Assembly (NCBI RefSeq): GCF_006345805.1
Contig: NC_042998.1
Coordinates: 142,972,001 to 143,036,000 of the forward strand
DNA length: 64,000 bases
Reading direction: 5' to 3'
Source of the DNA: Octopus sinensis
Lineage: Eukaryota
Positions 11,640-47,749 of this stretch are shown here, piece after piece. Positions within the stretch are counted from its first letter, which is position 1; each line of letters opens with the position of its first letter. A model generated the notes under the pieces. That model saw nothing but the letters and a program-made list of their open reading frames with translations, had not been told where the DNA came from and did not search any database. The position numbers and the translations under genes were made by a program.

Positions 11640-12022
11640 ATGCTTGCGAAGACATGCTGGGGCAAGCGAAATCAAAATCGAAATCGAATTGAACCAGCCA
11701 GGATCCCTGGTCTGGTGGTACGTAAAAAGCACTATCCGACTCGTGGCCGATGCCAGCACCGCCTCGACTGGCTTCCGTGCCGGTGGCACATAAAATACAC
11801 CAATCCGACCGTGGCCGTTGCCAGCCTCGCCTGGCACCTGTGCAGGTGGCACGTAAAAAGCACCCACTACACTCACGGAGTGGTTGGCGTTAGGAAGGGC
11901 ATCCAGCTGTAGAAACATTGCCAGATAAGACTGGAGCCTGGTGCAGCCTTCTGGCTTCCCAGATCCCCAGTCGAACCGTCCAACCCATGCTAGCATGGAG
12001 AACGAATGTTAAATGATGATGA
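11640..12022 (+). mobile_element. Young copy of an abundant RTE-3'UTR-derived repeat with (GAT)n tail
   Basis: GGTTGGCGTTAGGAAGGGCATCCAGCTGTAGAAAC...CCATGCTAGCATGG...GATGATGAT; CpG-rich; related copies at ~41175-41460 and 55560-55850 (+), and 27010-27230, 29610-29830, 40710-40930 (-). Confidence 0.8.
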
Positions 12023-12367: not shown

Positions 12368-12438
12368 TCAGTTTGACAGGTTTGAGCCGATATTATTGTC
12401 CTCATCTTTGTTCTCTGTGGCTTTCATTTCATTGCAAG
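12368..12438 (-). CDS. KXD1: KXD1 probable last coding exon (ACNEMKATENKDEDNNIGSNLSN*)
   Basis: Acceptor CTTCTGTTTCAG|CT in non-repeat sequence; phase 1 compatible; acidic patch like the KXD1 C-terminal tail; TGA at 12370-12368; total CDS 393 nt. This region is poorly conserved, so support is weaker. Confidence 0.7.
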
Positions 12439-14421
12439 CTGAAACAGAAGTTGAAACAATTAAGAACAAACTAACGTGGCATGAACAAAACATATGAAAA
12501 CAAAGCTTCAGTGTCTAGATAAACTGTGTTATCTAGACACAGTTCACGGTCATGTAAAATAAACAAAAGTTCTCGTCAAATCACTAAATTAATTAATGCC
12601 AAGTCATGTTACCAAGTCACTTGGTAAAAAATAAGATAATGTAAGCATTTGTTTTGATTGTTTTCTGTTTTAATATTTATAAAGCTGATGTCAACATTGT
12701 GGTACCTTCACAGTGAACTGATTTTGTCACCTAGTTTCCAAACAACAGTTGGAATTTTGTTTTTATTACTTCATTCTTCTCAAAGAATATCAATATCGAT
12801 ACAGATTTAGATTATTGCACAGAAATGATGATGATAATAACAATAATGTGATGGTGAGAACAATAATGATAGCAGAGGTAATGATGATGGAGGCAATATG
12901 ACAAAGATAATATATTTATTAAATGCCATATTCCAAAACTGGTCTACTTTTCTTTCATGGTTGAAGACATTCCATACAGGAAACAAAAGACGAAGACAGG
13001 TGAAGGAACAACAAGCAGGTGTATTTGCTTAATGCTCGGGAAGAATGGAAAAGTCTTTAACATTTTGAGCCTACGCTCTTTGACAGAAAGGATTGGGAGG
13101 ATACTTTATGGCTCTGTGGTAAAGAAGTTTGCTTTCTAGTCACACAGTTTGGAATTCAGTCCCACTGAGTGGACTTTAAGCAAGTATCTACTCTAGCCCC
13201 AGGGCCAATGAAGATCTTGTGATTTGATTTGATAAGCAGAAACTGAAAGAAGACCACTCTATGTGTGTGTGTGTGTGTGTGCGTGCATGAGACGGAGATT
13301 ATGTTTGTGTGTATGTTTGTTAACTATTTCCTTGTCTTGATATAATGTAATGCTTGTAGATGAGCATCACTGTCATACAAGCAGTGTCCATTTATTATCT
13401 TCTTTGTAAACATGTCTGGCCATAGGGAAATATTACCTTACTTAGAAATAGGTGAGGGTTGGAAACAAGGCCTCTGGCCATAGAATATCTACAAGCATAA
13501 ATATACATACGGATGAATACATATACATATTTACAAATGTATGCACACACCTTATATCTATACAAAGAGAACTCCTACAGGTAAAAAAAAAAATAGACAT
13601 GAAGCTTACATTTAGATATTAGGATATCTAACAACAAAAATAGATCTCTGAAGTGGGTTGAGTGATCGTCTTTACTTGAATGAATAGTTTTTAAATTTCA
13701 ATTTTAATTAGACAATCAGAAATTATACAAGAGAGGTAATTCATGAAGACATCGAAGGGAAGCAATCAAACGCCCACCTTCATACATGTGTCTAATTTTC
13801 TTTTCTTTTATTTGTTTCAGTCACTGGGGCACCAACATGATGGGTTTATTCGAACAAATCGAGCCCTGTACTTATTTTTAAAGCCTGGTACTTATTATAC
13901 CGGAATTTTTTGCCCAACCGCTACATTACTGGGACGTAAACAAACCAAGACAAGTTTACCAAGCGGTGATGGGGACAAACTCAACACAAAGATGGACTCC
14001 TTTCAGTTTCCGTCTGTTAAATTCACTCACAAGGCTTTCAACTCAGAGAGGTAACGAAAAATATTTGCCCAAGGTGACGTGCAGATGGACTGAACCTAAG
14101 ACCACATGGTTAGGAAACAAGCTTAATATTTTTCAACAAAAATGCTAACAGTGACTTTGAGGTTTCGTCATCAAAATGTCGGAGGATCGCGGTTTCGATT
14201 CCCAGACCGGGCGTTGTGTGTGTTTATTGAGCGAAAACACCTAAAAGCTCCACGAGGCTCCGGCAGGAGGTGGTGATCCCTGCTGTACTATTTCACCACT
14301 CTAAAAGGCGGTGCTCCAGCATGGCCGCAGTCAAATGACTGAAACAAGTACAAAAAAAAAATAATAAATAATAATATTTGCAAAGGGAAGTCATCTTTCC
14401 CATCTCCAGCCTGACGCGATA

Positions 14422-14466
14422 CACACGGACCCGAGTTTCTGAATACTGACCCGTCATCAGCGTGTG
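14422..14466 (-). ncRNA. Type I minimal hammerhead ribozyme motif (Penelope/retrozyme type) in KXD1 intron 3
   Basis: Minus-strand RNA: CACACG CUGAUGA CGGGU-CAGU-AUUCA GAAA C-UCGG-G UC^ CGUGUG; perfect 6-bp stem I, full core, GUC cleavage triplet; C.A mismatch at the base of stem II. Confidence 0.8.
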
Positions 14467-16542
14467 ACAACCACCGGTTGGCGATGGGAATGATCTTGGA
14501 AACGTGGAAACAAGCAATAATAAATCTCTGAGCGAGGTACAAACAGTAGCTGAACGACATCGTGAAGTATATTTGCCACCTAAATGTGGCTATCCCTTAA
14601 GGGTTAATGCTACTGTAGCTTGTAGCCCCAGGAAGACATCTCCAGCTGGCTATTGACACACTTTCTACACACACATAAAATAACTGCCCTTAAACACACA
14701 CACACACAAATATATATATAACAGGTTGACTTCGCTCCTCATGTTAGAAAACACGACTAGCTCCTCGGACTTAATGGAGATAAGGTGGATAAATAACACA
14801 AAACAAGATGGCTTTTTTCTTATAGAGAGAAATTAACCCTCATTAATATATAGTTGGTAAAATCGTTAGCACACCGCGCAAAATACAAAGCGGCATTTTG
14901 TCTGTTTTTATGTTGAGTTCAAATTTCACTGAGGTCGACTTTGACCTCGTCTTTTCGGGGTCGATAAAATAAGTACTAGTTGAGCACTGAGGTCGATGTA
15001 ATTGAGTAGTCACCCTCCCCACGAACTTGCTGGCCTTGTGCCACAATTTGAAATCAATATATAATAATGACGATGATGATAAGATATTGATCTTAGCCAT
15101 AAGGCTGATCCGTTGTAGTTCAGCAACCGATTGCTCTTGGAACATCCAATGCAGAAGTAACAAATAACCACAAACGTACCATAGGGAACAGATGATATAA
15201 ACTTATGTATATCATAATTTCACATGCATACACGATTCACTAAAGAGAAACATTGGACATAGTTCTCTGAATATAAATCTTCGATATTTTCTTCCATCCC
15301 TTTTTTTTTATTTTCCTAGATTACATCCGGTGGAGGGACAGTCATGGTTGGACTTTAAACAAATAAAGTCGGTGAACAACAACTGTTGTACACAGACGCG
15401 ACTTCACGACTTTAAAGTGAGGAGAGATGTGATTTATTTCATAAAAAACTGAAACACGAAACCATCGTAACATTATTATTAATTACAACAATATGAACTA
15501 GGCTGGTTAATTATTAATTATGTTTTCATCAACAAGCCAAAACGCTCATCATATGGTTGTGATTACTACCTTCTATTTGTTATTTTATTATATTTATTCA
15601 TATTTTTCTAAGAGACAAGTACGATTAATGGTGTCTAAAACTAATTTTTAAAGTATACTGGATGATCCTATAGAACTGAGTTAGGAATTATCTGCTGCAC
15701 TAAAAGCCGTAATAATGTTTAAAGTTAAAAAAAAAAAATAACAAGGCAGAATTTGGAATTATTTTCAAATAAAAACATTTAATAAGTGATTTTTAAAGAT
15801 TTACATATTCGTTTTGCATAATTGAGATATCCAACTCTATTTTTGTATTTTCCATAATGTTTTTGGTTTTATTCTCTAATACACATACACACATAAAATC
15901 AAAGATTAACAACACAGTATCTCATAAATCCGACAAGTTAAAACTGGAAAAATAATTACGGGAGGTGGTAGAAATAAAACTCTCATCCCTACTCTGTAAT
16001 CTACTATGCTTAAAACAGAGATCCGAAGAAATTACTGCTTTCGGCATACTAGATTAATTCCCGACTCTATAGTAATGCCGAATGCTGAATTATCTCTTTC
16101 TATGATTTCAGCAAACCTTATTTGTGCACAAATATTTGGCAAGGAAAGTCCTGCTATTGGTGTGTATTTTATACACGAGAAGTCGACAATTATTCCTATA
16201 AGGAATGAAAAAGAAGTGAATATACTACAGATAGTTCGAACTACAGTGGAAATTTTGATCTCACAGTGAACGGATATATTATTGAATGTGTCATTACAAA
16301 ACAAAACAAAACCACTGTGTAAGTGAAATGTACTCACTTTTAAGTCACATATGCTTACTTAGAGTTACGAATATTGCAATGAAACACTGTATACGAGTTA
16401 TATGTAAGAGGCCCGAATACAAGAGAGAAAAAAAAGCCATCAAGTACAATGCAGGGTAGGTAACTCTGCACTGCCTCGGTTCATTAATTTTTATAGTGAA
16501 AATAGCGGGGGATATATTCTGATGGAAACGGCATTTTCTTCG

Positions 16543-16607
<65 letters not shown>

Positions 16608-19077
16608 GATTTAATTTTCCAAACATTGAAATTAGTGATATATGAAATAAGAAATATTTAAAAGAACTCAGTAATATAAAAATGGAATTACGCTAAAAAC
16701 AAAAAAATGCAACTGTCTTGGGCAAAACCCTAAAGAAAAATAATACGTGTATGCCTGTTTATGTATAAACAGTAAGACAGAGAGAAAATAGAACGGAAGA
16801 GTGTATACATGTAATATTTTAGATGCAAGAAAAACAAGCACATTCAAAATGTATGATTCTTGAGAATGATATTCTCTCTCCATACAATATAGAAACATTT
16901 CTCATGGCACCAGAAGACAAATTGGAAAAGGACTCTTTAATATGATCATGGACTTCAAGATTATCAAAGGAGGCAAAAGTGATTATTTGTGGTGTTTATC
17001 ATTGTTGAAGCCATAAGTGATATAAATGACACAAAGTTGGTGAAGGAAAACAAAGTCATAAATTTGTATCACTAAAAGTGTACTTTTACATTGCTACGGA
17101 CCAATATATTGCAGTTATATCAAGGAACAGACATTGGAGATATTTAAGAACACACAAAATCCTTAGTTTTCACTTTTTGTTAACAGACATGTCTGTGCGA
17201 TAAGAAGTTCACTCCCCAATCACATAGTTCCAGGTTTGGTCTCAATGCATGGCACCTGGGCCAAGTGTCTTCTACAATAGCCCTAGATCAACCAAGGCTT
17301 TGTAAGTGGATTTGGTAGGCAGAAAATGAAAGAAGTACATGTGTGTATGCTTGTGTGTGTGTTCTTGTTTTGACTTTAAATAATAGCTGTAGGAAAGCAT
17401 CACCATCATACAAGCAGTGTTTTTCATTTCTATGAAAACATGTCTAGCCAAGAAGAGATATTTCTTAACTTGGAAACAGGTTAGAGTTGATGACAAGAAG
17501 AGCACCTGGCCTCAGAAAATTTACCTCAACAAATTCTGTCTGTCCTATGCAAACATGGAAAAGTGGACATTAAAAAATGATAATGATGAAGATAAGTGTA
17601 ATTAATTTATCATCAAGTGGTAAAAAGTTCTCAAGTTCTGCCATGATTCTTCTGCATCAATGTCAGTGACCAAGTCACAGAAGTGTGTAAAGAAAAAAAA
17701 ACAAAAGAAAGGAAAGCTTTTCTATTCATCATAATAAACAGACAGGATAAAAGAGGACTGTTAAGAAATAACAAGCGAATATGGCAGTTTTTGTGAGTTC
17801 TTAAAAAACTAAGATCATTCTATCATGATATGTTTCAGTTTTAACATAAGATCAAAGAAGTTAAACTCATCATTATTATTTTATGGTCACTACTTCATGC
17901 TGGCATGGTGTGGGACACACACACACACACACACAGAATCCAAATTTACAGAAAGCAAAAGACAAAGGCAGGTGAGGGAACAACAAGCAGGTGTATTTGT
18001 TTCATGCTTGGGAAGAATATATATATATGTATATATCTGTCTGTCTGTCTGTCTATCTCTATACATGATGTGTTTCTACACAGCTTCTGCCCACAGAATT
18101 CACTCATAAGGCATTGGTCACCCGGATTTATAATAAAAGGCACATCCCAAAGGTGCCATGCAGTGGGACTGAACCCAAATCCACTTGGCTGCAAAACAAG
18201 CTTCATACACACACACACACACACGTATGTGTTTGTATATGTGTGTTTGTGTGTGCACTTGTATGTATCATCATCATCACCACCTTTATAATGTCCACTG
18301 TTCCATGTTTGCATGGGTTAGATGAGATTTGATGAGTTAGATTATCTATAACTGGGTGCCCTTCCTGTCACCAACCCTCACTTGTATCTAAGCAAGGTAA
18401 TATTTCCTCTATGGCAACCAGATGGCTGCACCAGGCTCCAGTCTTGATCTGGCAGAGTTTCTACAGCTGGATGTCCTTCCTAACGCCAACCATATATATA
18501 TACTACATATATATACTACAAGCATCTCTCAGTTTCTGTCTACCAGATCCACTCACAAGTCTTTTGTTGGCTCAGGGTTATAGTAGAAGAACCTTGCTCA
18601 AGATGAGATGCCATGCAGTGAGATGCAACCTGAAAGTAAGTGGTTGGGACTTCTTAATCATACAGTCATTTTTTCACCTAAACAATTATTAATAATAAGA
18701 ATAATACTTTCTACTATAGGCAAAAGGACTGAAACTGTGGGGGAGGGTGCTAGATGATTACATTGACCCCAGTGCATAACTGGTACTTATTTTATTGACC
18801 CCAAAAGGATGACAGACAAAGTTGGTCTGGGTGGAATTTGAACTCAACATAAGATTAATGATAATAATAATAATTGTTGTTGTTTCAAATTTCGGCATAA
18901 GTCCAGCAATTTTAGGGGATAAGTTGATTACACTGAGCCCAGTGTTCAACTGATATTTTATTGATCCCAAAAGAATGAAAGGCAAAACTGACCTCAGTGG
19001 AATTTGAACTAAGAACATAAGGAAGTGGAAGAAATGCTGCTAAGCATTTTGTTTGCAAATAATAATAAAAATCATAC

Positions 19078-19124
19078 CTGAGAAGGCTTCAGGGTATATT
19101 TTGTTTAATCTCTGTTTCAGATTT
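19078..19124 (-). CDS. KXD1: KXD1 coding exon 3 (NLKQRLNKIYPEAFS)
   Basis: Matches KXD1 LK.KL...HPEAFS; acceptor TTTGCAG|A, donor TCAG|GTATGA; 47 nt, phase 2-1. Confidence 0.92.
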
Positions 19125-20691
19125 CTGCAAATAAATAAATAAATAAATAAATAAAAAGACTTACATGTAAGAACTTGGAATATTTTTCTTCTGATCCTCT
19201 TGTAGGAATTATTAATCACTGAATTTTTATTATTTGTTACACTACTGCACATTGTATCATCATCAACATTTAACGTCCATTTTCCATGCTAGCACGGGTT
19301 GGATGGCTTGTCAGGAATTGGCAAGGCCAGGGACCACACCAGGTTTCATAGTCTGTTTTGGCTTGGTTTTTACAGCAGGATGCTCTTCCTAACACACAGA
19401 GTGTACTGGGTGCTTTTTACATGGCAGTCCTCTGCCTTACATTGTTTCAAACTGTTCAATACATGTAGTAAAGATAGTTTGCTAACATAACATGGCAGTC
19501 CTGGTTTAGGACTAACATTGCTGTAATTTAGTCCCAGGAGACATCCTCTCCAGTTGGCTATATGACACGATCTGTATCCTTATATTTTCGAACAAGGGAA
19601 TCTAGCACCCACCCTCAGCTCAAAACAATATCTGTGTATCGCGATTTCTGGGTTATTTCTCTTCATCCCCTAATGCTAGCATAGAAGATGGATTTTAAAT
19701 GTTACTGGTGTGTGTGTGTGTGTGTGCCCCTCTCATCAGGGTATCATGTAATAGTCATAAATAAGTGTCACTATCATACAAAGTATGTCATTTGTCTCCA
19801 ATCTTTCATAAGAATATGTCTGGCCATGAAGAAATATTGTTTTGCTTAGGAACATGCAAGGGCTAGCAACAAGAAGGGCATCTTGGCCTTAGAAAATCTG
19901 CCTCAACAAATTCTCTCTAACTCATAGAAGCATCACCATCAACATTAACTAGCTGCAATGTAAAACTATAGCATTCAACTCATAACTAACAAGAGTAAAT
20001 CTTTACACTTTTGACTTAGCTCTTTCCTACCCCATCATTTTTATAACAACAACAACAATAGTTTGAAATTTTTCCACAAGGGCAGCAATTTTGGGGGAAG
20101 AGTTGAGTTGATTACATCAACTCCAGTGTTCTACTGGTACTTAATTTATCGACTCCAAAACGATGAAAGGCAACAGTCGACATCAGCGGAATTTGAACTC
20201 AGAACATAAAGACAGATGAAATACTGCTAAGCATTTTGCCCAATATGCTAATGTTTCTGCCAGCTTGCCACCTTAATAATAATAATAATCCTTTCTACTA
20301 AAGGCACAAGGCCTGAAATTTTGGGGGAGGGGAATAGTCAATTACATGAACCCTAGTGTTCAACTGGCATTTATTTTATCAACCCCCATAAAAGATGAAA
20401 GGCTAAGTCAACCTTGGCAGAATTTTAACTCAGAACAAAGATGGATGTAATACTGTTAAGCATTTTGCTTGGAATGCTAACGATCCTGCGAGTTCACTGC
20501 ATTTTCGCTGCCCTCTTAAAAATTCCACATGTAACTTTAACACAAATTGAACTCACAATCATAGCTACTCGAGAGTTGTACTACTTGCACCTATGTAGCA
20601 TAATAATGATAATAATAATAATGAGCTTATTGTATACAGTGCACTATAACTTGTCAGGAAAGGTAAAAGAAAAGGAGAATGACTAGAGAGA

Positions 20692-24062: not shown

Positions 24063-24751
24063 GTGTATGCACCTGCTCACACATCTTCATATTCATCACT
24101 CAGTGCTTGACGACTAGTGGTTTGTTAACAAACCCGGTAACTTAGCAGTTTAGCAAAAAAGAGTAATAGAATATTCTAGACTTAAGAAAATATGTACAGG
24201 GGCAGATTTGAATGGTGATACACAGTCAGTGCCCCAGTATGGCCATAGCTTGTGTATCATCCAAGACACACATACTTTTCACTTCAATAGTAATCTTAAC
24301 TCCTGTTTATGAGGTCCTTTAACTAGGGATGTCTAAAATGTCAACAACCTTAGGACCTGACAAAATAATGCATTTTTTGCATTTCACCATTTCTTCACAA
24401 TTACGTTGCAATTCACATTGACTGAAGATCTGTTGTTGAAGTACACTAATTCTTCTTGTGGTTGTTGTTATTGCTGTTGAGTTACAAAAAAAAAAAGACC
24501 TAGATCAACCTCAATTGAGTGAATCCTTCATCAAAGGGAGTTTCAGCAGCAACCATCAGGTATTATGGGCTCTTTTAAAATTGCTTTTAAGAGGTAAGTA
24601 GTGCATACATTATCCGAGGTGTCCTTTTCTTGGTTGCTATTTCTAGCATGTCTGGTGACCACATGGAAACTACCATCGTGGCTTGTTCTAAATTTGTTTG
24701 AACTTTGATACCACCCCCCCAAAAAAAAAACAATTGAAAATCACTACTGAC

Positions 24752-24904
24752 CTGATTCTTTTAAAGACTGTATCTAGGTCTTTTTTCATCTCGTACAGGA
24801 GTAATGTGTCTTTCTTGAACTTGTGACACGTTGCTTCGTAGCGAGATGAAGACAGAAGATTGAAATTGAGAAGCATTTCGTTAGTTTTTTCATACCGAGA
24901 TAGC
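24752..24904 (-). CDS. KXD1: KXD1 coding exon 2 (LSRYEKTNEMLLNFNLLSSSRYEATCHKFKKDTLLLYEMKKDLDTVFKRIR)
   Basis: Diagnostic EKTNEMLLNFN and EMKKDLD (KxDL) motifs; acceptor TTTCAG|G, donor AG|GTCAGT; 153 nt, phase 2-2. Confidence 0.95.
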
Positions 24905-35955: not shown

Positions 35956-37690
35956 TCTTTTCTACTAAAGGCACAAGGCCTGGAATTTTGGAGGAGGGGA
36001 CTAGTTGATTACATCGACCCTAGTGTTCAATTGGTACCTATTTTGACAGGCAAAACTGACCCCAGTGGAGTTAAAGACAGACAAAATGCTGCTAAGCATT
36101 TTGCCTAGCATGTTACTGATTCTGCCAGCTTGCTGCCTCATCAATAATAATAGTAATAATAATCCTTTCTGTTACAGGTACAAAGCTTGAAATTTTGGGG
36201 GAGAGAACCAGTCAATTACATCGACCCCAGTATTTCACTAGTACTTAATTTTTCAACCCTAAGGATGATGGCAGATGGCAGAATTTGAACTCAGAACCTA
36301 AGAATGGATGAAATACCACTAAGCATTTCACCTGGTGTGCTACTGATTCTGCCAGTTTGCCACCTTGATAATTATAATAATTCTTTCTAATTTTAGCATG
36401 TGGCCAGTAATTTTGACAGGAGAGGTCAGTCAATTACACTGACCTCAGTGCTTGATTGGAACTCATCAACCTTGAAAGGATGAAAGGCAAAACTGGCATA
36501 GGTGGAATTTGAACTCAGAATATTAAGAGCCAGAAGAAATGCTGCTAAGCATTTTGCCTAGCATGTTACTGATTCTGCCAGCTTGCTGCCTCATCAATAA
36601 TAATAGTAATAATAATCCTTTCTGTTACAGGTACAAAGCTTGAAATTTTGGGGGAGAGAACCAGTCAATTACATCGACCCCAGTATTTCACTAGTACTTA
36701 ATTTTTCAACCCTAAGGATGATGGCAGATGGCAGAATTTGAACTCAGAACCTAAGAATGGATGAAATACCACTAAGCATTTCACCTGGTGTGCTACTGAT
36801 TCTGCCAGTTTGCCACCTTGATAATTATAATAATTCTTTCTGATTTTAGCATGTGGCCAGTAATTTTGACAGGAGAGGTCAGTCAATTACACTGACCTCA
36901 GTGCTTGATTGGAACTCATCAACCCTGAAAGGATGAAAGGCAAAACTGGCATAGGTGGAATTTGAACTCAGAATATTAAGAGCCAGAAGAAATGCTGCTA
37001 AGCATTTTGTCCAATCCACAAACAATTCTGTCAGCTCGACATCTTAAATAATAACAATAATTCTTTCTGATTTTGGCAAAAGGCTAATAATTTCGGGAGG
37101 AGGGTATAATCAATTACATCCACCCCAGTACTTGACTGGTACTTTATTATATTGATCCCCAAAAGGATGAAAGACAAAGTTGACTTTGGCAATATCTGAA
37201 CTAAGAACACAAAGAGCAGAAAGTATATTGCCTGATGTGCTGACAATTGTGCCAATCTGCTACCCTAATAATAATCCTTTCTACTATAAGCACAAGGCCT
37301 GGAATTTAGGGGGAGGGGACTAGTTGATTACATTGACCCCAGTGTTTCACTGGTACTTAATTTAATGAACCCGAAAGGATGAAAGACAAAGTTGATCTCA
37401 ACAGAATTTGAACTCAGAATGTAGTGACTAGTGAAATATTGCTAAGCATTTCATCCAGCATGCTAACGATTCAGCCAGCTCACCAACCTAAATAATAATA
37501 ATAATAATAATGATGGCTTCAAATTTTGGCACAAGGCCAGTAATTTCAGGAGTAGGGGTAAGTCGATTATGTCAACCCCAGTGCTCAACTAGTATTTACT
37601 TTATTGACCCCGAAAGGATGAAAGGCAAAGTCGACCTTTGCAGAATTTGAACTCTGAACATAAAGATGGACAAGTAACAATAATAATAAT
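35950..37690 (-). repeat. Head-to-tail SINE array (about 8 units) including a 453-bp tandem duplication
   Basis: Same unit as 33450-34370; 36084-36536 repeated at 36537-36989. Confidence 0.9.
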
Positions 37691-45020: not shown

Positions 45021-47627
45021 CTACATACACAATTTTCAGTTTTTGTCTACCAAACTGGTAGGCCCAAGGCTACAGTAGAAGACATTTGTTCAAATTCCGC
45101 CAATGTCAACTTCGACTGTCATCCTTTCAGGGTTGATAAAATAAAGTACAATTCAAGTACTGGGGTCAATGTAATTGACTATACCCCTCTTCTAACATGT
45201 GCCAAAGATATGAAAGAATTACTGTAGCAGAAGACATTTGCACAAGTGAAACTGAGCCCACAACCAAGTGGAAGGAAAGTGAACTTCTTAACCACTCTGC
45301 CATGCCTGCAACTATTATCGATACGTTTTATCGTTTTATTTACAACCTCGAGACACTAACATCGACAGCACAATGAGATTTCACATAGATTGCAATCTAC
45401 TGTGAGATATGTGAAACAACTAAAAGTATATAAACGTCCTATCAACATAAACAGACATCTCAACATGAACTTTTGAGAGTTAACATGCAGTTTAGAGATT
45501 TAAAGAAATGAATATAAACTGATAGAAATGACGACAGTGACAACCCTCAAGAGAACTGGTGAAATCCCTTAATTTTATTAACAGAGCTCCCTCATTATGT
45601 CATGTCCACATGTAGCTACTGATACAGTACCTTTTAGTAATATCTTAAGTATCTGTAGCAGCAAAGGTAAACGTTTCATAAGTACTATAACTTGCAACAA
45701 ATAACACTAGTGAAAAGCGAATTCGGTGATTTACATGTCGACGCATGATAACCACCATGGTTAAATGTGAATATTGCAATAACCCTGCACCACAAATGAA
45801 CAGTACAAAAAGGACGGGAACTAGTGGCGTTGTTCCTATCGATTCACTGTAGAATAGAATGTTGACAAAATTCACTTCCGGTCAATTTACTCTCAAATTT
45901 AAAAATTGCTAAACTACACCTTAGCCTTATTTAGGACATAACGTGTTATTAAGAGAAGATTATTTATTTAATGTATTGCTCTTCGTTCATCAGTTTAGCT
46001 TGATATTTTACGCTGCATTCGTTTTGTATCAAAAGTCAAGGACGTTTTGAAGACGAACGTATTGAGCAAGATTATTACTAAAACGTCTAAATTCTGCTTT
46101 AAACACGCCAAATAATCCCTCATTGCGCTTTTAGTTTTTGGAATTTTCGGAAAATTAAAAAAATTTTGTGGATTTGTGTTTTACGCACGGTAATTCATAT
46201 AACCATGAAAACAAAAAACATTTCAATTTTTCAAGATTTAAGAAATTTATTCTTAATTTTTCGAATTCTTTTTTAAAAATCAGTTTAAAATACGGACAGT
46301 CCGAAGCTTTGACTTAAATCCCTGCAATAGACCATTAACTGTGTTTATGGGGAGAAAGATATTGAAAAACATTAATACGTCAGAGTGACAAACGAGGACG
46401 GTATGAGGTGGTCATGAGAGGTGTTAAAAATAACAGCTAAATACCTCCTTTAATCACACGTCTTTTCATTTTTGCATAGCCGAATGGATTTCCGTGTGTA
46501 GAACACAAATTCGCAAAAATATAAAAAGTTATGAGGGGGATATATGGCGTGCTTAAAACAATCCCGCCATCTATAATATTTTAAAAACCATTCAGTAATT
46601 TGTTGATGGTCATTACACAACATAATGATGTTACAGAAGTGGAATGGAAAACATTGCAAAAACATTCTAGAATTACTTTCGATTTGTATTTTAGAAGGCT
46701 AAACCTCAGGACGGATACTTTTTCCTTCATACAACCGATTTTATGTTAATAACAAATAACATCAATGAAAATAATGTCAGTTTTTTTTTTTTCTGTTGTT
46801 GTGGGATAATTATTTTCTTTTTGATTAAAATATGTTTTAATTAGAAAAAAATTAACGAACATAATCGTAACCTACGCCTTCAAAAACATATATCTGTCAA
46901 ATTTCATTAAAAAAATATGCATTATTAAGAAAATTATGAGGGGAGAAAAATATGAGCGAAGGTAGGGGCACTTAACTGTAGTTATGCCCCCATTTCTCAT
47001 TGTTCCTGTGATTTTTTTTTTTTATAAATTTGTATTGCGATAATTAATTTTCAAGATGTTTTGAAGTGTATTCGTGAGCCATATACAATTCATTATATTG
47101 GTGACATTTTAACCATTGGAAAGTCGTTTGCAAAAGAACAAAGATACTTCGTTCGCAGATTTCATCGTGATAGGCGTGGTCGTGCAATATGTGGCCCGAG
47201 GTCTCGAAAAAACAACTATGGATTGAAACTTACAATGTAATGCTATTTGGTCGTATTTCATGCTTTTGCGTGGTTCTGCTTGCGTTGCAGCGCTAGATGC
47301 ATCAATCGATGAGGTGTTTATTATGTATGTATGTATATAGATGAGTGTCTGCGTGCAGTCGGACTCACATGGTGAGAACGAACGGCTTATCGATTTTAGA
47401 CGAACTGAGTCAGTGATCCGATTGCTATTCCGAGATAGAACAGCTACCCTTAAATTGCCAATGCCTGAAATACGAGAATTTCTCTTTACCCTCACCTGAA
47501 GAAAATCTGAAGTTTCACGCTTTGTAAGAAACATGTTGTTACACATAAATTAGATGATATCAAACCGAGTGTTTTACCAAAAATAAAATAAAATAAAAAG
47601 GCAATAATCTCCAGTGACAATACGTAC

Positions 47628-47749
47628 ATCTCTTTCTGTGTTTGGATCATACAGCCAACATCTTCCTTGTTGATCTGACAAGTGAGTGCTTCAGTAAAAG
47701 TCGTGGCATAGTCTTCTATAGACAACGGAGACGTCTGACCGTCCGACAT
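47628..47749 (-). CDS. KXD1: KxDL motif-containing protein 1, coding exon 1 (MSDGQTSPLSIEDYATTFTEALTCQINKEDVGCMIQTQKEM)
   Basis: ATG at 47749; peptide aligns by eye to the KXD1 N-terminus (F...L...VN.DDV..II..QK.M); phase-2 donor AT|GTACGT; joins exon 2 in frame. Confidence 0.88.

Follow-up and report, generated by a model that had tools for sequence, protein, structure and literature searches.

The KXD1 Locus

The window, i.e., the whole 64-kb stretch of octopus DNA that was analyzed, contains the gene for KXD1. Its identity was confirmed by a match to PF10241 at 24748-24903 on the minus strand, and the octopus KXD1 protein P0001 maps to four minus-strand coding exons (Table 1). When only coding exons are numbered, the intron that precedes the last of them is intron 3. 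As an earlier note on this DNA had it, a hammerhead ribozyme motif lies in this intron, in the sense orientation and ~2.0 kb upstream of the last coding exon, which is borne out by the exon mapping and the GT-AG ends of the intron (19077-12439).

The last coding exon is unlike the C-terminus of the cuttlefish-type homologs P0002 and P0003, and the last ~55 residues of these proteins have no tblastn match in the window. Intron 1 contains a near-perfect tandem duplication of 453 bp (36084-37009; two copies with a 99% match), which is possibly recent or an assembly artifact. Very high-copy short repeats, which are probably SINE-like, flank the element in intron 3 (14303-14365, 14100-14300, and 14920-15060) and are also present at 11740-12020. 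They overlap the region of the KXD1 3' UTR, and their summed depth is 10^4-10^5 times that of unique sequence. The 3' end of the intronic element adjoins the A-rich end of one of these short repeats.

Table 1. Features of the KXD1 locus, of the hammerhead copy in intron 3, and of natural arrays of the same family. Positions are those of the window unless preceded by the name of a locus.
Feature	Position	Strand	Basis or remarks
KXD1 coding exon 1	47627..47749	-	P0001 mapping
KXD1 coding exon 2 (KxDL domain, PF10241)	24751..24903	-	Profile and P0001 mapping
KXD1 coding exon 3	19078..19126	-	P0001 mapping
KXD1 last coding exon	12371..12438	-	P0001 mapping; transcript contigs extend to ~11980
KXD1 coding intron 3	12439..19077	-	GT...AG ends; hosts the copy in sense
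Solo copy of ~350-bp retrozyme-like unit, 292 bp	14375..14666	-	Alignment to the natural unit of L016
Distal 3'-end ('tail') site class, unit ~203-220, AT-rich	14498..14512 (approximate)	-	By alignment
Main 3'-end site, unit ~155-172 (GGCAAATATAC)	14555..14572 (approximate)	-	By alignment
Type I hammerhead motif	14422..14466	-	Descriptor match and family alignment
Hammerhead stem I	14466-14461/14427-14422	-	6 bp
Hammerhead CUGAUGA	14460-14454	-	
Hammerhead stem II and loop	14453-14440	-	
Hammerhead GAAA	14439-14436	-	Followed by stem III, C(UCGG)G
Hammerhead UC	14429-14428	-	
Natural array L016			Three hammerheads, period 349
Young-subfamily array	L165:1298-3165		Four hammerheads, period 353
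Young-subfamily array	L166:2322-3413		Three hammerheads
Young-subfamily array	L183:1286-3792		2,507 bp

The Hammerhead Motif

On the minus strand, positions 14466-14422 read CACACG-CUGAUGA-CGGGUCAGUAUUCA-GAAA-CUCGGG-UC-CGUGUG. With C3 at 14460 and C17 at 14428, cleavage is predicted between 14428 and 14427. Both the letters and the cleavage position are those given in the earlier note. None of the 12 fixed core positions is changed and the 6-bp stem I is complete, and the CUGANGA/GAAA/NUH core, the three helices and the open end in stem I are those of a type I hammerhead. A type I descriptor produced this single match on both strands of the window, compared with 0.07 loose and 0 strict matches per shuffle in 60 block-wise dinucleotide shuffles. 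The sequences flanking the motif are predicted to lengthen stem I, and the minimum-energy fold predicted for the 45-mer itself differs from the hammerhead fold (z -0.57). The earlier note had considered the motif a minimal form. Its helices of 6, 4, and 2 bp, however, correspond to the form designated 'canonical metazoan type I' in PMC4209133 and not to the minimal form found in Penelope-like elements (PLEs).

The outcome of a search with hammerhead models, which the earlier note had proposed as a check, was divided. Rfam gave 0 matches at gathering score in the window, and no hammerhead was found at E ≤ 10 in the intronic copy or in the 1.1-kb and 91-nt stretches searched. Young relatives of the copy, in contrast, match RF00163 (Hammerhead_1) with 30.3-32.2 bits and E values of 1e-5 to 6e-5, which is below the gathering score of 34. 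Since Rfam finds no hammerhead in the close relative L004 either, its failure to match is not specific to decay of the copy in the window.

The Copy in Intron 3

The motif is part of a copy of a unit of ~350 bp. In the numbering of the L016 unit, which starts at the cut, the copy consists of positions 59-349 followed by 1-46. It is ~50 nt shorter inside, a shortening that seems common to L003, and it ends 12 nt short of a full turn. Its identity to the nearest copies is ~90-94% over parts, and that to a young subfamily is 78-80%. A second copy of the family is absent from the 64-kb window, which contains a single hammerhead. By the two-unit definition of an active retrozyme locus (Li et al.), a locus with one copy and one hammerhead, such as this one, is a 'monomer derivative'.

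Both standard 3'-end sites of the family (Table 1) are present inside the copy, and neither is used as its end. The copy ends at unit position 46, between CAAATA and an AT-rich tract, in a bin with 1 of the 141 ends that were analyzed. This atypical 3' end may have arisen by unusual priming, or the copy may have been truncated later.

When each column is represented by its most frequent letter, the copy deviates at 3 of the 14 positions of stem II and its loop, and at 10 of the 170 positions of the 5' part. Two of the changes in stem II and the loop make G.U pairs. The energy predicted for the stem II hairpin alone is 0.0 kcal/mol, vs. -4.7 in L004 and -4.4 in the young subfamily. To force the hammerhead fold costs 10.2 kcal/mol in this copy, where the median of the family is 7.2 and where 71 of 100 copies have an equal or lower cost. 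The weak stem II strand, AUUCA, is found in 3 of 100 other copies. What likely attenuates the ribozyme is, first, that the window contains no partner copy and, second, that stem II by itself is predicted to remain unfolded.

A Family of About Two Thousand Intact Cores

When the same genome was searched with a 321-nt query, 3,217 candidates were obtained, 40 of which were scored. Exact matches to the core pattern numbered 133 genome-wide for a tight pattern, 537 for the core with the CAAT loop, and 2,207 for the core geometry only; the reversed-pattern controls gave 0 matches. The genome-wide copy count for which the earlier note had called thus stands at 2,207 intact cores of the same geometry. 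By eye, ~8 of the first 100 core-geometry matches listed belong to other hammerhead families, which leaves roughly two thousand intact cores for the retrozyme-like family of the octopus. With about two thousand such copies in the genome, the motif is not a feature specific to KXD1. Unrelated hammerhead-like motifs with a long stem II and a short stem I, i.e., of the minimal type of PLEs, are found at L013:1757, L051:941, L179:4632, and L167:1044; the genome therefore holds several hammerhead families.

Natural tandem arrays with periods of about 349-356 bp contain up to 7 units, the longest measuring 2,507 bp. The unit has a GC content of 43.1-43.8% and a longest Met-initiated ORF of 46 aa, and, when folded as a predicted circle, one unit has a z score of -4.4 relative to 100 shuffles. 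From the 2,207 core matches, 19 loci were selected that share one core and have a G-C base pair in stem II; their identity to the L165 unit is 95-99.6%, and they constitute a young subfamily. Its unit is 353 bp long and has a 5-bp stem II with a G-C base and a UCGA loop, and its arrays contain ~3-7 units. The identical 34-nt core was seen, by eye, in 31 of the first 100 core-geometry matches listed. The arrays L165, L183, and L166 are the best candidates for an active retrozyme.

Judged by its sequence, the family fits the metazoan non-LTR retrozymes. A type I hammerhead occurs once per unit in tandem repeats of a unit within the range of 150-450 bp; the unit is non-coding, has a GC content below 50% and, judging from GC content and ORFs, no LTR body; and the short helix III carries a self-complementary, dimer-competent loop. 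This agrees with the kinship to retrozymes and PLEs that the earlier note had pointed out for type I hammerheads whose stem III has 2 bp. Family-like contigs occur in runs that are guessed to be RNA, where contigs reveal neither ends nor circles. Substitutions average 2.5 within and 6.0 between arrays; L166 and L183 have a single private column each, and L165 has none. As a test of rolling-circle replication this is weak, since local duplication would give the same pattern.

Covariation in the Stems and the Stem-III Loops

The anatomy of the hammerhead was studied in the first 100 matches listed of the 537 to the core with the CAAT loop, which represent 96 loci. Compensatory changes between subfamilies are found in stems I and II: pair 5 of stem I covaries (A-U in 60 and G-C in 29 of the 100 copies), as does pair 2 of stem II (G-C in 64 and A-U in 20). 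At the base of stem II, C.A is found in 76 copies, U-A in 10, and U.U in 8. The C.A mismatch, which the earlier note had suspected of attenuating the ribozyme, is thus the commonest state of the family. Its other suspected defect, the UCGG loop, fares no better: with 26 occurrences each, UCGG and UCGA are the two commonest stem-III loops, ahead of UGCA (25) and CCGG (7), and UCGG is a wobble palindrome that allows for a full dimer helix of 8 bp. The predicted energy of this helix is -8.9 kcal/mol for UCGG vs. -10.7 for UCGA.

The eight bases A15.1-U16.1 can pair fully with those of a second copy in 88 of the 100 hammerheads, in 58 by Watson-Crick pairs and in 30 with G.U pairs. The inner bases of the loop are able to pair in 91 copies, where shuffles have a mean of 53.8 and 0 of 5,000 reach 91, and the outer ones in 97, where the mean is 92.9 and 20 of 5,000 reach 97; this covariation rests on a few changes at the founding of subfamilies and not on 100 independent events. 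As these loop pairs cannot form within one molecule, they point to a dimeric hammerhead of the type described in PMC4209133. Four interchangeable palindromic loops thus provide natural covariation support for cleavage as a dimer.

Insertion Anatomy and a Probable Penelope Connection

The insertions of the same 96 loci (from the first 100 of the 537 matches listed) have 141 outer 3' ends. Two 18-nt intervals, i.e., unit positions 155-172 and 203-220, contain 111 of these vs. 14.5 expected, the intervals having been chosen after an earlier set of loci, in part overlapping the 96, had been seen. TA repeats follow 69 of the 141 ends. With respect to their structure, 43 loci are inverted, 16 are longer than one unit, and 37 are solo. 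Both ends lie in the intervals in 26 of the 43 inverted pairs, 25 of which combine one short end and one 'tail' end; the other 17 pairs have an end elsewhere. Young loci repeat the pattern with ends at 170-174 and 216-220. The distribution of the 5' ends was left unused, as it is biased by the same selection for the core pattern.

At the level of the family, the insertions display the hallmarks of PLE mobilization: 5' truncation, partial tandems, 5' inversion, a one-sided tail, and a microsatellite target. Since the inserted sequence extends across the cut site and stops at an internal position, the template would be a circle or an uncut multimer that was primed internally. Together, the fixed internal 3' ends, the (TA)n targets, the inversions, the one-sided tail, and the read-through of the cut site suggest that an enzyme of the Penelope type primes inside circular or multimeric RNA, and a defined template and priming site follow from the insertion record.

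The genome contains 5,029 GIY-YIG candidates and ORFs of up to 883 aa with reverse transcriptase (RT) and GIY-YIG domains. In L067-L091 and L167-L175, PLEs with an RT plus a GIY-YIG domain at the C-terminus are abundant, and many have open frames of 775-883 aa; several frames of 781 aa have identical scores, which suggests recent activity. Around the 30 top GIY-YIG loci, the descriptor gave no hammerhead match up to a distance of 1.5 kb, and the unit was not encountered as a terminal repeat of PLE ORFs in 46 stretches (30 of 147 matches listed and 16 longer ones, partly from the same loci). An ORF with RT and GIY-YIG domains is present neither at the locus in the window nor among the ORFs listed for L001-L061. 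In L088 and L169, a family copy lies 0.8-0.9 kb from a PLE ORF; the two are not fused, and we take this as coincidence. It is solely from the insertion anatomy that we infer a PLE partner for the family.

Selection and Transcripts

A neutrality test was based on 25 hammerhead-spanning copies that were picked by overall similarity and not by their core. In these peers, 15 of 300 core positions and 122 of 2,045 other positions are mutated (Fisher p 0.6), and the intact core is kept in 14 of the 25. Since the core decays like other positions and 14 of 25 copies have it intact, an intact core is expected without selection. Column conservation, which is 0.98 in the core, was discarded as evidence for constraint because most loci had been chosen by their core pattern.

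Two runs that are probably RNA, a guess as the runs have no RNA label on record, contain contigs of 1,033 and 797 nt on the last KXD1 exon; such contigs give presence and not ends, strand, or level. Both contigs are mRNA-like in that they stop at the intron-3 acceptor (12442; exon 3 ends in the same four letters) and have their remainder outside the stretch. Their depth is 45.7 and 31.6 vs. 0-7 in unique intron bins. In run X1, a 238-nt contig that is identical to the window copy over 211 nt (14381-14591) bridges the uncut site; it could be derived from DNA, antisense RNA, a re-ligated circle, or a near-identical paralog. Relative to the neighboring repeat, the summed depth of the family (501/88,610 in X1 and 18,739/1,567,830 in X14), a poor measure, is not higher in RNA-like than in DNA-like runs, and we draw no conclusion on expression from it.

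One contig of organism C, a close relative, spans the 5' junction of the copy, and the insertion is thus common to at least one other label. As organism C and the window copy differ in only 2 letters in ~280, this sharing shows recency and not constraint. In contigs of the more distant run X18, neither an occupied nor an empty orthologous site was readable. Very probably, the window copy is an inert relic of a transposable element, the fallback that the earlier note had allowed for and that is favored by the neutral decay of the core among its peers and by its solo state. It would, accordingly, have little effect on KXD1.

Relation to Known Systems

The closest known systems are the metazoan non-LTR retrozymes described in PMC7229834, such as those of Mytilus, with units of 350-390 bp, and Rtz353 of the axolotl with its hammerhead HHR_Amex2. 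Like these, the octopus family has a non-coding unit (349-353 bp) with a GC content below 45%, thousands of copies, arrays, and a predicted circle that is self-paired. HHR_Amex2 shares the 2-bp helix III capped by a tetraloop and, at the base of helix II, a mismatch, which is U.U in the axolotl and C.A or U.U in the octopus. The differences lie in the host, a cephalopod, and in the loci, which in the octopus are mostly dispersed monomers, partial tandems, and inversions. Furthermore, whereas RNA and circles are described in PMC7229834, the octopus family is described here from DNA and from contigs of runs guessed to be RNA, and the copy in the window is a lone and shortened one.

With PLEs that encode a C-terminal GIY-YIG domain (bioRxiv 10.1101/2021.04.23.441226), the family shares truncation at the 5' end, partial tandems, a 5'-truncated copy in inverted orientation, and a tail at one end. 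Also a hammerhead within the repeat (PMC4209133) and, as in Naiads, (TA)n targets (bioRxiv 10.1101/2021.04.23.441226) are common to both. In contrast to PLEs, the octopus unit has no ORF and does not match the sequence of any PLE locus examined, and its tail measures ~45 nt vs. 30-40 nt. Xenopus retrozymes (bioRxiv 10.64898/2026.07.22.740005) similarly occur as monomers, dimers, and multimers, co-occur with PLEs, and are often intronic. In Xenopus, the link with PLEs is based on distribution and homology to their pseudo-LTRs (pLTRs), and in the octopus on insertion anatomy. As 42-44% of the Xenopus copies are located in introns (bioRxiv 10.64898/2026.07.22.740005), intronic retrozyme copies are ordinary.

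Invertebrate retrozyme hammerheads are described to cleave as monomers, that of the mussel with a kobs of ~0.1 per min (PMC7229834). A partner is, therefore, perhaps not strictly required, and some cleavage of a lone copy is possible. HHR_Amex2, of the described hammerheads the closest in geometry, is a weak monomer with 22% cleavage in 1 h (PMC7229834).

What is new is a family of octopus retrozymes, including a young subfamily of 95-99.6% identical copies, which we did not find described. The literature, with supplements and Repbase/Dfam entries outside the scope of the search, yielded no description of an octopus retrozyme. The main text of PMC7229834 has 0 mentions of octopus or cephalopods, and its supplement could list octopus; in the main text of bioRxiv 10.64898/2026.07.22.740005, as far as consulted, 'octopus' occurs 0 times and no mollusk is mentioned. 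The giant squid paper gives 235 matches to Rfam hammerhead_1.

Interpretation

The amniote ribozymes HH9 and HH10 and the CPEB3 ribozyme are single-copy and conserved. With these, the motif in KXD1 has in common its position in a host intron, in sense and upstream of an exon (for CPEB3, PMC10274809). Unlike these, the KXD1 copy is a member of a young multi-copy repeat and bears no sign of constraint. That it was domesticated as a conserved regulator of KXD1 is, accordingly, exceedingly improbable. The intact core and the sense orientation would fit such a role, as would the insertion shared with organism C, but an intact core is the majority state among the peers, the small divergence from organism C reflects recency, and the higher density of changes in stem II and its loop than in the 5' part is the opposite of what purifying selection would leave. 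Cleavage of a sizeable share of the KXD1 pre-mRNA ahead of the splicing of intron 3, by the copy alone or paired in trans with RNAs of the family, could lower the output of the gene as an unselected effect. We consider this unlikely. The complete core and stem I, the flanks that are predicted to extend stem I, the dimer-competent loop, the sense position 2.0 kb upstream of the acceptor, and the monomeric activity of the mussel hammerhead (PMC7229834) all speak for it. Against it, stem II is predicted to be unstable and an alternative pairing to be preferred, a partner in cis is lacking in the window, spliced-type contigs are present and one contig bridges the site, and only one of nine Xenopus retrozyme dimers tested cleaved in vitro, eight remaining without cleavage (bioRxiv 10.64898/2026.07.22.740005). 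A different question is what the 350-bp unit represents. It could be the pLTR of an autonomous PLE, the copies being heavily 5'-truncated PLE insertions; the PLE-like anatomy of the insertions, the abundance of PLEs in the genome, and the relatedness of Xenopus retrozymes to pLTRs (bioRxiv 10.64898/2026.07.22.740005) are in line with this idea. Yet, copies longer than one unit run into further units, up to 7, without coding sequence, no unit sequence was found downstream of the GIY-YIG ORFs examined, and the hammerhead has the canonical 6/4/2 form and not that of PLEs. All in all, a pLTR origin seems quite improbable.

We are, hence, rather confident in the following reading: a solitary and shortened copy of a ~350-bp non-coding element of the non-LTR retrozyme type was likely pasted into KXD1 intron 3 by Penelope-type retrotransposition, and its hammerhead, the motif described above, likely cuts too weakly to matter. 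Tandem copies of the family would be transcribed, and two hammerheads would pair via their self-complementary stem-III loops and cut out unit-length RNA, which ligation would then turn into a circle. An RT/GIY-YIG enzyme of the Penelope-like kind may nick (TA)n DNA; priming would occur at a fixed AT-rich site that lies 165-175 nt past the cut, or up to ~215 nt for the tail, from where the template would be copied around. The insertions that result would be truncated at the 5' end, permuted, partly in tandem, and inverted. It has been proposed that circles serve as templates for tandem cDNA, made in a target-primed manner by 'LINEs or PLEs among others' (PMC7229834), and the mechanism of retrozyme mobilization is considered still open in bioRxiv 10.64898/2026.07.22.740005. 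In the KXD1 pre-mRNA, cleavage is presumably slower than the splicing of intron 3, so that normal mRNA would be made; slow cleavage is expected because there is no second hammerhead in the window and stem II is weakened by G.U pairs. Thus, for the regulation of KXD1 the motif probably does not matter, and the useful result is the family, whose insertions in the octopus genome record how such elements move.

A more speculative scenario is one of action in trans: RNAs transcribed from the young retrozyme arrays would pair with solo hammerheads that lie in sense in introns, such as that of KXD1, through the stem-III loop and thereby switch on cleavage of the pre-mRNAs. As worked out by hand, the UCGG loop of the KXD1 copy pairs fully with UCGA and CCGG loops. 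We hold this scenario to be very improbable; if true, hundreds of genes of the octopus, KXD1 included, would be tuned by a family of mobile RNAs whose intact cores number roughly two thousand.

At L165:2932-2986 and in L104, L118, and L189, inversion junctions in or near the hammerhead create long perfect hairpins, transcripts of which would form double-stranded RNA. One of these hairpins scores as a false miRNA match in Rfam.
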